Origin: an uncultured bacterium
GTDB lineage: Bacteria; Verrucomicrobiota; Kiritimatiellia; RFP12; CAIWXQ01
Direction of reading: 5' to 3'
Assembly (NCBI GenBank): GCA_903916675.1
Contig: CAIWXQ010000001.1
Location: 217 to 64,216, forward strand
DNA: 64,000 nucleotides
The notes beneath the pieces were generated by a model. It saw only the letters and a program-made list of their open reading frames with translations, was not told where the DNA came from and ran no database searches. Both the position numbers and the translations under genes were made by a program. This document shows positions 55,218 through 56,034 of this stretch, one piece after another. Numbering within the stretch: the first letter of the stretch is position 1; every line of letters begins with the position of its first letter.

Positions 55218-55253
55218 TCGACAGGCGTCGACTCCAGTCGACTCGAGTCGATG
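55218..55253 (+). repeat. 36-nt GTCGAC-unit repeat, copy 1
   Basis: TCGACAGGCGTCGACTCCAGTCGACTCGAGTCGATG starts 1 nt after the alaS stop. It is 34/36 identical to 55998-56033. Confidence 0.9.
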
Positions 55254-55269
55254 GAACGGAGTTGACGCC

Positions 55270-56034
55270 ATGTCAGAAACTCTTTTCTCCAAGCGCGGAG
55301 GCTACCGTCGCCTCGACACCTTCATGCTGGCGACCATTATCTATTATGGGACGGTCGCCTTCTGCCATAAATACATTCGCAGCGGTCGGCAGACGGAGCA
55401 AATGGTGCAAGCGGCCCGTTCCGGGCGGCAGAACATGGCGGAGGGATCGGAGCGCGCCGCAACATCCACGCAGACCGAAATTCAACTGACGGATGTGGCG
55501 CGTGCCAGCCTGGCGGAACTGCAGCTCGATTACGAAGACTTCATCAATTTACAGGAGCAACATCCCTGGAAAGATGATGATCCCGACAGTCTGGAGATCA
55601 AGGCCATTCGTCTGGAACGCACTTCTGCGGGCGCAGATATCATCCACAACTTTTCGCGAACGACAGCACAGAACCGCGCGAAGTTCGACAAGTGGTTGAA
55701 ATCAAATGATCCGGTGACCATCGCCAATGCCATGGTGCGGCTGTGTGACCGCGCCGATTTCCTGATCCGGAAACAGCTCTCTGCCCAGGGCGAGCACTTC
55801 TTGGCGCAGGGAGGTTTCAAGGAGCGCATGACCCGTTGTCGTGCGGCAGCACGAGTAGAACCGGACACTCCTGCCTGCCCCAAGTGCAATGATCCGATGC
55901 GGCTGCGCAGCGTTCGCAAGGGGCCACGCGCAGGCGGCCAGTTTTGGGGATGCACGAACTATCCGGAATGCGACGGATTGCGTGAGGTCGACGCCAGTCG
56001 ACAGGCGTCGACTCCCGTCGATTCGAGTCGATGA
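55270..56034 (+). CDS. Four-helix-bundle (23S rRNA IVS-protein-like) protein fused to a topoisomerase-type C4 zinc ribbon
   Basis: Start MSETLFSKRGGYRRLDTF (ATG 55270) in track ORF 55042..56034. The N-terminal pattern is ...QMVQAARSGRQNMAEGSER...EIQLTDVARASLAELQLDYEDF. The C-terminal region is ACPKCNDPMRLRSVRKGPRAGGQFWGCTNYPECDG. One 60-nt line I counted was 52% GC. Confidence 0.8.
   Translation: MSETLFSKRGGYRRLDTFMLATIIYYGTVAFCHKYIRSGRQTEQMVQAARSGRQNMAEGSERAATSTQTEIQLTDVARASLAELQLDYEDFINLQEQHPWKDDDPDSLEIKAIRLERTSAGADIIHNFSRTTAQNRAKFDKWLKSNDPVTIANAMVRLCDRADFLIRKQLSAQGEHFLAQGGFKERMTRCRAAARVEPDTPACPKCNDPMRLRSVRKGPRAGGQFWGCTNYPECDGLREVDASRQASTPVDSSR
55998..56033 (+). repeat. 36-nt GTCGAC-unit repeat, copy 2 (inside the 3' end of the four-helix-bundle gene)
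   Basis: TCGACAGGCGTCGACTCCCGTCGATTCGAGTCGATG encodes the tail ...SRQASTPVDSSR*. It is preceded by one more GTCGAC unit. Confidence 0.9.

Follow-up and report, generated by a model that had tools for sequence, protein, structure and literature searches.

Matched phased repeat arrays around a four-helix-bundle gene at the alaS 3' end of an uncultured member of the Kiritimatiellia

A 64,000-nucleotide stretch of DNA from an uncultured bacterium of the Kiritimatiellia (contig CAIWXQ010000001.1, positions 217 to 64,216; hereafter the window) carries, between alaS and a convergent wrbA-like gene, a 254-aa gene of the four-helix-bundle type that is bracketed by two almost identical 36-nt repeats. 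What ties such repeats to such a gene? Our analysis shows that four-helix-bundle genes with matching phased arrays of short repeats are a general design, in this genome as well as across phyla, and that the gene and its arrays form one evolutionary unit, which some close relatives have at the alaS 3' end and others lack. With moderate confidence we read the locus as an accessory cassette without a recognisable promoter, in which the arrays serve the encoded protein as its partner in cis and are also the substrate of gain and loss.

The two 36-nt copies are positioned at 55218-55253 (TCGACAGGCGTCGACTCCAGTCGACTCGAGTCGATG) and 55998-56033 and are identical at 34/36 positions. A preliminary description of the locus had reported them together with the lower GC content of the gene, and both observations were confirmed (57% GC inside the gene compared with 63-68% in its surroundings). 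It had also described the repeat as made of GTCGAC units. The hexamer array is real, although the unit is more exactly RTCGAY, repeated with an exact 10-nt period in four units upstream (starting at 55217, 55227, 55237 and 55247) and five units downstream (55987, 55997, 56007, 56017 and 56027). The extra downstream unit stands ahead of the second 36-nt copy. The first copy corresponds to units 2-5 of the array in the coding tail, and the identity of the copies ends exactly at the array edges. Searching the window for GTCGACN4GTCGAYN4GTCGA with up to two mismatches gave 10 matches, all at the two array sites, compared with 0.09 expected from shuffles. Throughout the 2.48-Mb assembly, arrays of TCGA with period 10 occur at these two sites only, and the reversed-pattern control gave 0. 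The best self-complementary window of 26 nt, GTCGACTCCAGTCGACTCGAGTCGAT, matches its own reverse complement at 22/26 positions and not at 23/26 as stated before, since an even-length palindrome cannot have an odd number of mismatches. As had been described, the first copy lies within an open frame that runs on into the gene (ORF 55042-56034, starting inside alaS), and the second copy encodes the C-terminal tail. The downstream array encodes the tail VDASRQASTPVDSSR (residues 240-254) and continues into the stop codon, which the second copy overlaps.

The preliminary description had proposed to inspect the other four-helix-bundle genes of the genome for flanking repeats, and all the others carry them. 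There are nine TIGR02436 matches in this genome; the flanks of all were read, and 9/9 have flanking arrays that are specific to the locus. Six intact short genes (about 120 aa) are each positioned between an upstream array and a complementary downstream array with a locus-specific unit of 6-7 nt, for example GAATTACG / TCGTAATT, CAGAGGN / NCCTCTG or GGTTCAC / GTGAACC. The seventh short gene is a truncated copy of 69 codons, which has the upstream array, while the partner array is found beyond the neighbouring rfbA. The truncated gene and the intact rfbA stand together between (GGATGCG)x5.7 and (CCCGCAT)x6.1 (C18:209283-210729). In the polysaccharide cluster around them nearly every intergenic gap holds arrays, and galE and a glycosyltransferase gene are bracketed as well. 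The second long paralogue with a zinc ribbon (C3:31154) has a 55-nt direct repeat.

The same design is found far outside this genome. In 40 relatives the long type was found in multiple copies, as many as 12 genes in one genome, and neighbouring or tandem copies of such genes occur. In GTDB, with one genome per species, at least 529 loci of the long type were confirmed, in phyla that include Verrucomicrobiota, Lentisphaerota, Kiritimatiellota, Planctomycetota, Bacteroidota, Desulfobacterota, Chloroflexota and others. Arrays are visible by eye in most flanks of 85 oriented loci. When an array was strictly defined as three or more occurrences of one 5-mer at a single exact period of 6-11 nt, we detected a flank array in 31/63 loci, compared with 1/126 control windows 1.1-1.3 kb away and 0/126 shuffles. 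The cognate upstream/downstream score beats 30 non-cognate pairings at 28/79 loci when scored as direct repeats and at 20/79 when scored as inverted repeats. By the criteria of Tandem Repeats Finder (TRF), arrays are present in 8-11 of 18 four-helix-bundle flanks vs 2-6% of random windows. A rule assigning a 9-10-nt period to long proteins and a 7-nt period to short ones was also considered and fails, since both the long paralogue C3:31154 and clade D of the tree described below use 7-nt units.

The core motif of the arrays follows the protein clade. We combined a maximum-likelihood tree of the 85 proteins with motif counts. A 17-member clade that spans four phyla has the core ATTGAC at 10/17 loci, and clade B has AATCGA at 6/8. 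In the clade of this cassette (G000, which is the genome of the window, G024 and G022) the core GTCGAC / AGTCGA (RTCGAY) is present at 3/3 loci. Clade D has GAGTCC at 3/4 loci, and the two E clades have GTCNGA and CGGATC / CCGATC. Cross-occurrence of these motifs between clades is almost nil. The units are spaced by exactly 9 nt in clades A, B and E and by 10 nt in the clade of this cassette. Where close cassettes are found in different contexts, the BLAST homology (80-87%) starts at the ATG and ends at the stop codon, and the flanks keep the core motif and the periodicity only. The spacers, the number of units and the arrangement of the arrays do not track the protein clade. Since the cores are conserved while these other properties are free, the arrays look like recognition sites of a co-inherited factor. 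The encoded protein, as the sole co-inherited factor, would then be the reader of the arrays.

The presence and absence of the cassette was followed in 40 related genomes, which were searched with the alaS C-terminus and whose downstream regions were read. An alaS-wrbA site without the gene, which the preliminary description had suggested looking for, was found in G002, a member of the same genus, and shows that the element is polymorphic. Here alaS, a 52-nt spacer and the convergent wrbA follow each other and the four-helix-bundle gene is absent. The spacer (L095, G002:C50, 1207-1258) holds a solo array, GTCAGACCT GTCAGACTT GTCTGATCG, with the core GTCMGAC and a period of 9, and this core with the same period also flanks G002's own long-type gene (L129) on another contig. 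In G024, the closest homologue (81% identical) is located directly after alaS. Its RTCGAY arrays stand after the alaS stop and in the coding tail of the gene, with spacers that differ from those of this genome. A third array precedes the next gene, which encodes a SWIM-domain protein, so that the downstream neighbour differs from wrbA. In G007, alaS is directly followed by that SWIM gene, with a 59-nt spacer between them. The spacer, with two TCGAC units and then ATC..TCGAAAGG, can be aligned to each of the two G024 cassette flanks at its inner end. The segment made of the array and the ribosome-binding region is present once in the empty G007 site and is duplicated around the G024 cassette. 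Judged from these sequences, a single and a duplicated segment would fit insertion with duplication and, equally, loss by recombination between direct repeats. The corresponding unit in the window, i.e. the ORF and one array, is 780 bp long.

The DNA 3' of alaS differs in nearly every relative (L094/G003, L097/G004, L096/G007), where an AAA-ATPase gene, unrelated sequence or a SWIM/SNF2 gene is found. The alaS 3' end is a variable junction in its behaviour. Although G024 is labelled as another family, its alaS places it at the same distance from G000 as the same-genus G002. G009 and G018 were considered as a second pair of occupied and empty sites and proved uninformative, since the upstream synteny is broken.

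The encoded protein consists of a four-helix bundle (approximately residues 11-94), a helical linker with the suffix domain TIGR04258 (149-195) and a C4 zinc ribbon (203-239) with the cysteines C203, C206, C228 and C234. The NCBIfam models TIGR02436 for the bundle (26.4 bits, cut-off 24) and TIGR04258 (56.8 bits, cut-off 40) and the zinc-ribbon model PF01396 (41 bits, cut-off 32) all match. The family match is marginal by Pfam, where PF05635 scores 23.7 bits, below its cut-off of 33.8. With nine homologues as input, AlphaFold2 gave a model of mean pLDDT 81, in which residues 242-254 of the array-encoded tail stay below 50 and are predicted to be disordered. The top Foldseek match is the Xanthomonas S23p pentamer 2gsc (probability 1.0, TM 0.68 on the target), and further matches are the Bacteroides S23-family protein 2rld and the Avd chain 8ub7_B from the ribonucleoprotein of a diversity-generating retroelement (DGR). 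The conserved helix motif N-x-AEG-x-x-R is present, with QNMAEGSER aligning to SNIAEGAAR of 2gsc. A sequence search of the PDB gave a weak S23p match and nothing further. The N-terminal domain is a member of the four-helix-bundle family of S23p, the 23S rRNA intervening sequences (IVS) and Avd, as had been described before.

The zinc ribbon superposes on the GRF zinc fingers of NEIL3 (7jl5) in Foldseek with an rmsd of 2.2 A and 35% identity. It is of the topoisomerase/GRF type, whose solved relatives bind single strands, and nucleic-acid binding, already suggested in the preliminary description, is by this analogy the likely activity. Pfam and NCBIfam give the bundle, the suffix domain and the zinc ribbon only, with no Y1/HUH transposase-like domain, and the defence-system models of PADLOC gave 0 families at E <= 0.1. 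Compared with the G024 orthologue, dN/dS is 0.08, which indicates strong purifying selection.

The locus is very compact. The alaS ORF (53409-55217 on the forward strand) ends with a TGA (55215-55217) that directly abuts the first repeat unit. The upstream array (55217-55252) consists of the units ATCGAC, GTCGAC, GTCGAC and GTCGAT, each followed by 4 nt, and contains the first 36-nt copy. It is followed by a 16-nt spacer (55254-55269) with the sequence GGAG at 55258-55261, which resembles a ribosome-binding site 8 nt before the ATG. The 254-aa gene runs on the forward strand from the ATG at 55270 to the TGA at 56034. Its zinc-ribbon region, matched by PF01396 and 7jl5, is encoded at 55876-55986, and the downstream array (55987-56032; GTCGAC three times and GTCGAT twice), which contains the second copy, comes next. 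The stop codon of the wrbA-like flavodoxin gene on the reverse strand (56035-56037) leaves zero intergenic distance to the cassette. A consensus scan, which is not validated for this phylum, showed neither a promoter nor a terminator between alaS and the gene, and the 16-nt spacer has no room for a promoter upstream of the ATG. Since no such signal appears in the scan, read-through expression from alaS would fit.

The neighbouring genes are recA, alaS, wrbA, an HTH/EIIA gene and an antiporter gene. No integrase, transposase or reverse transcriptase is encoded within 3 kb of the locus, and Rfam has no matches in 53200-56300. No repeats other than the arrays are present at the locus, and there is no template/variable repeat pair. 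An integron gene cassette found no support, as the flank sequence, which was read, contains no attC core of the GTTRRRY type and the neighbours are those just named. The unit from repeat to repeat measures 780 nt, exactly 260 codons, and a circular or tandem form would be a stop-less ORF; this may be a coincidence. The alanyl-tRNA synthetase encoded at 53409-55217 has just 602 aa and ends right after the editing domain, without C-Ala. Most of the searched relatives are similar, with an open frame of about 600-620 aa.

Arrays also occur in this genome without a four-helix-bundle gene. TRF finds hundreds of short-period arrays, common in intergenic DNA, and many of these form inverted pairs, separated by 10-110 nt, which fold into long hairpins. 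The spacer between recA and alaS (window 53311-53413) holds (GTCATTG)x4, a 46-nt loop and (CAATGAC)x4, giving a hairpin of about 35 bp and -75.9 kcal/mol. The GTCATTG heptamer family is present on at least five other contigs, and a four-helix-bundle gene with this unit was not found in the assembly, which is 87% complete. Two further hairpins of the window (25935-26013 and 31671-31760) are built from hexamer arrays (CGGGGT CGGAAT CGGTAT ... and the reverse complement) of the largest array family of the genome, with at least 54 loci. Their hexamer unit matches the arrays that flank the short four-helix-bundle gene C3:15995-16417, whose tail DPDTDTDADPD is array-encoded. Array probes from the seven short genes found 4-54 further loci each, and probes from the two long genes found their own flanks only. 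The cassette had been seen as a protein-carrying version of the stem-loop elements of the window. We could not uphold this in so simple a form, since those elements use unrelated 6-7-nt units of the short paralogues and the GTCGAC array is unique to the locus. In G024, further RTCGAY arrays are found away from the cassette. A genome-wide claim of one gene per repeat family was dropped, as single-linkage clustering of the units from TRF merged almost all heptamers in a single cluster with 101 loci.

How could the protein and its arrays act together? The S23p family forms pentameric rings. In the reading we favour, the protein would be oligomeric and each of its subunits would recognise one conserved core, most likely on single-stranded DNA or RNA. 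As direct repeats, the arrays may also be the substrate for cassette gain and loss, with the 780-bp unit leaving by recombination between arrays and a solo array being left behind. The gene would be expressed by read-through from alaS. Candidate roles of the protein-array complex are self-regulation, protection, processing and mobilisation.

Several points weigh against this reading. Binding by the protein, processing and movement of the cassette are all predictions from the sequence. Moreover, we know of no catalytic activity of the four-helix bundle, so that the bundle alone cannot account for recombination. No single simple binding geometry accommodates periods of 7-10 nt. Under the strict rule only about half of the relatives show arrays. 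Since arrays are concentrated in intergenic DNA, their enrichment at four-helix-bundle genes, though real, is modest relative to such DNA, and we rely on the cognate pairing and on the specificity of motif and clade. The link is also not exclusive, as short-period arrays flank ordinary genes of this genome (rfbA, galE, glycosyltransferases). The empty site of G002 has no clean insertion boundaries; it holds a different array, and the pre-insertion state is not seen there. Within the species no variation was seen: several samples yielded 21 contigs with an identical protein, the gene order being recA-alaS-gene-wrbA in every case, and the four loci with DNA among them are identical in nucleotides including the arrays, with no sign of present movement. 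Finally, the dS between G000 and G024 is 1.66 for the cassette gene vs 0.69 for the adjacent alaS C-terminus (2.4-fold). Since the former exceeds the latter, common descent and repeated insertion at alaS are indistinguishable.

The explanation that competes best is an RNA element similar to the IVS. The gene would be co-transcribed with alaS, the arrays would pair in a long imperfect stem, and RNase III would cut it to release a stem-capped monocistronic mRNA of the four-helix-bundle gene while the alaS message stays intact. We regard this as possible but rather doubtful, and it can coexist with the reading we favour. The comparison with the IVS, made already in the preliminary description, is apt: in the 23S IVS of Coxiella burnetii three tandem GACAGAT heptamers, whose number varies among strains, precede the S23p ORF, and RNase III cuts at the first heptamer within the 28-bp terminal stem (PMC4990558). 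Both the minimum free energy and the centroid folds of 55205-56050 pair the two arrays, and the array-array duplex has -56.7 kcal/mol vs -31.4 +/- 4.3 for shuffles. The genuinely inverted arrays that enclose the short paralogues of this genome also speak for this explanation, as does the negative consensus scan for promoters and terminators.

However, the duplex is equally stable on the antisense strand, and the two copies match better in direct (34/36) than in inverted orientation. In the predicted stem, cores of 6 bp alternate with half-paired spacers of 4 nt. Mismatches in the predicted stems of the 85 loci are mostly transversions (297), and G.U (79) stays below A.C (125), which gives no sense-strand excess and no signature of an RNA, although the power of this test is limited, since arrays change through the duplication of units. 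In clade A modules of the hairpin type, where the cores are 100% paired by construction, the four spacer positions are Watson-Crick paired in 48%, and G.U equals A.C. The cores are conserved in sequence, and not by compensatory substitutions that keep pairing alone. The long stem proposed to enclose the gene is energetically possible, but the better direct match of the copies, the barely complementary spacers in relatives and the missing G.U excess speak against it. The preliminary description is partly right, in the protein family, the cassette character, the polymorphism and the likely nucleic-acid binding, and probably over-weights a single long RNA stem. By analogy with Coxiella, RNase III processing of the cassette transcript would be a plausible but secondary property.

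A further explanation would be a historical accident. The first copy would be the 3' remnant of a deleted tandem paralogue, or the product of a local duplication, and the arrays would be slippage-prone and functionless. In its favour, the first copy is in frame with the gene and corresponds to units 2-5 of the tail-encoding array, some relatives have such genes in tandem or close to each other, and short-period arrays are abundant in the intergenic DNA of this genome. However, the same bracketing is seen at independent loci and in different phyla with clade-specific cores, the cores are conserved while the spacers drift, arrays stand at both corresponding places of the G024 orthologue despite different spacers, and the 36-nt identity ends exactly at the array edges. 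We therefore consider an accident improbable. The deleted tandem copy is a special case of a cassette bracketed by a duplicated array segment. Least credible of all, and in our view very improbable, is a site-specific recombination cassette with the arrays as att sites (integron-like attC or a Xer/IMEX-like site) for a recombinase encoded elsewhere: the single promoterless ORF of cassette size between imperfectly palindromic repeats, the occupied and empty sites and the duplicated array segment would suit it, but the flanks lack the attC core, no integrase is encoded within 3 kb, both flanks carry the same cassette-specific array instead of a different attC per neighbouring cassette, and the dozens of core motifs would each need their own recombinase.

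Among known systems, the IVS of 23S rRNA with an ORF (Coxiella burnetii, Leptospira, Brucella, Xanthomonas; PMC4990558) share the S23p four-helix-bundle family with the cassette. Both are small elements with a single ORF that lack their own promoter and use host transcription, and both have repeats able to pair at their boundaries, in Coxiella as short tandem repeats directly upstream of the ORF. The distribution is sporadic in both and suggests horizontal transfer. Unlike the IVS, the cassette follows a protein-coding gene (between alaS and wrbA) and is not inside an rRNA helix, and its protein has the additional suffix domain and zinc ribbon. Its flanks are arrays with a 10-nt period in direct as well as inverted register, whereas the IVS has a near-perfect stem of 28 bp.

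According to Foldseek, the cassette protein shares its four-helix-bundle fold with Avd, the accessory protein of DGRs (8ub7). Avd is a basic pentamer to which both the DGR RNA and the reverse transcriptase bind. It is a nucleic-acid-binding oligomer, as the cassette protein may be, and there too the functional nucleic acid includes the 3' end of the gene. In contrast to DGRs, the locus has no reverse transcriptase within 3 kb and no template/variable pair, and its repeats are short phased arrays.

In REP/REPIN systems (repetitive extragenic palindromes) a single-copy gene for a REP-associated tyrosine transposase (RAYT) is flanked by cognate palindromic repeats, the clade of the protein is matched to the repeat family, and copies without the gene are dispersed. 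The cassette resembles them in the cognate flanking repeats and in the match of clade and repeat family. Gene-less dispersed copies are found for the short paralogues (4-54 loci per unit) and, for the long type, in G002 and G024. However, the cassette protein lacks any known catalytic motif and does not belong to the Y1/HUH transposases, a core of 5-7 nt is repeated in tandem where REP systems have a single hairpin, and this genome has no dispersed copies of the RTCGAY array.

The pattern of one conserved core per subunit with free spacers between is known from TRAP, which binds phased triplets as a ring oligomer, with each subunit contacting one core and non-conserved spacers between the cores. 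The arrays described here have this pattern; the analogy is mechanistic only, as the fold is unrelated. Intergenic tandem 7-nt arrays of unknown function, the short tandemly repeated repetitive (STRR) sequences, are known in heterocystous cyanobacteria, and in the literature searched we found no published link between STRR and four-helix-bundle genes. The Ssn site-specific nucleases for single-stranded DNA have a GIY-YIG domain and are matched to NTS/SRM repeats that surround genes, and their activity was shown experimentally (PMC11893778). They are similar to the cassette protein in that a small protein is genomically tied to a short repeat around genes, and their target is a single-stranded nucleic acid. 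They differ in the unrelated GIY-YIG fold and in having single motifs instead of phased arrays, and their activity is demonstrated, whereas the cassette is known from its sequence.

The locus is a member of a class, S23p/Avd-family genes bracketed by matched phased repeat arrays, which is apparently undescribed. We found no description of the pairing of a four-helix-bundle gene with flanking arrays in the searchable literature, and the rRNA intervening sequences are the only published relatives of the class. More speculatively, S23p/Avd four-helix-bundle proteins in general might be sequence-specific readers of phased short tandem repeats, acting as ring oligomers with one subunit per core on single-stranded DNA or RNA. 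Gene and arrays would then be a pan-bacterial two-part element, gained and lost through recombination between its flanking arrays and seeding gene-less solo arrays and hairpins with its own core elsewhere in the genome, with the 23S rRNA IVS as a special case. This generalisation is tentative and we think it has less than an even chance of being right.

To our knowledge, the very large family PF05635/TIGR02436 has solved structures and no known function outside DGRs. The matched, clade-specific arrays turn this family of unknown function into a concrete question: does the protein bind or process its own array? They also link three puzzles, namely the origin of the rRNA intervening sequences, the gene-less array hairpins in the genomes of the PVC group (Planctomycetes, Verrucomicrobia, Chlamydiae), Bacteroidota and others, and the heptamers of the Coxiella IVS. 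If the proteins do read phased repeats, this would be the first function for the family, and it would account for much of the so far unexplained surplus of array hairpins and 7-10-nt tandem repeats between bacterial genes. Proteins that recognise short single-stranded repeats by their sequence would be interesting for applications as well, as is known from the Ssn nucleases (PMC11893778).

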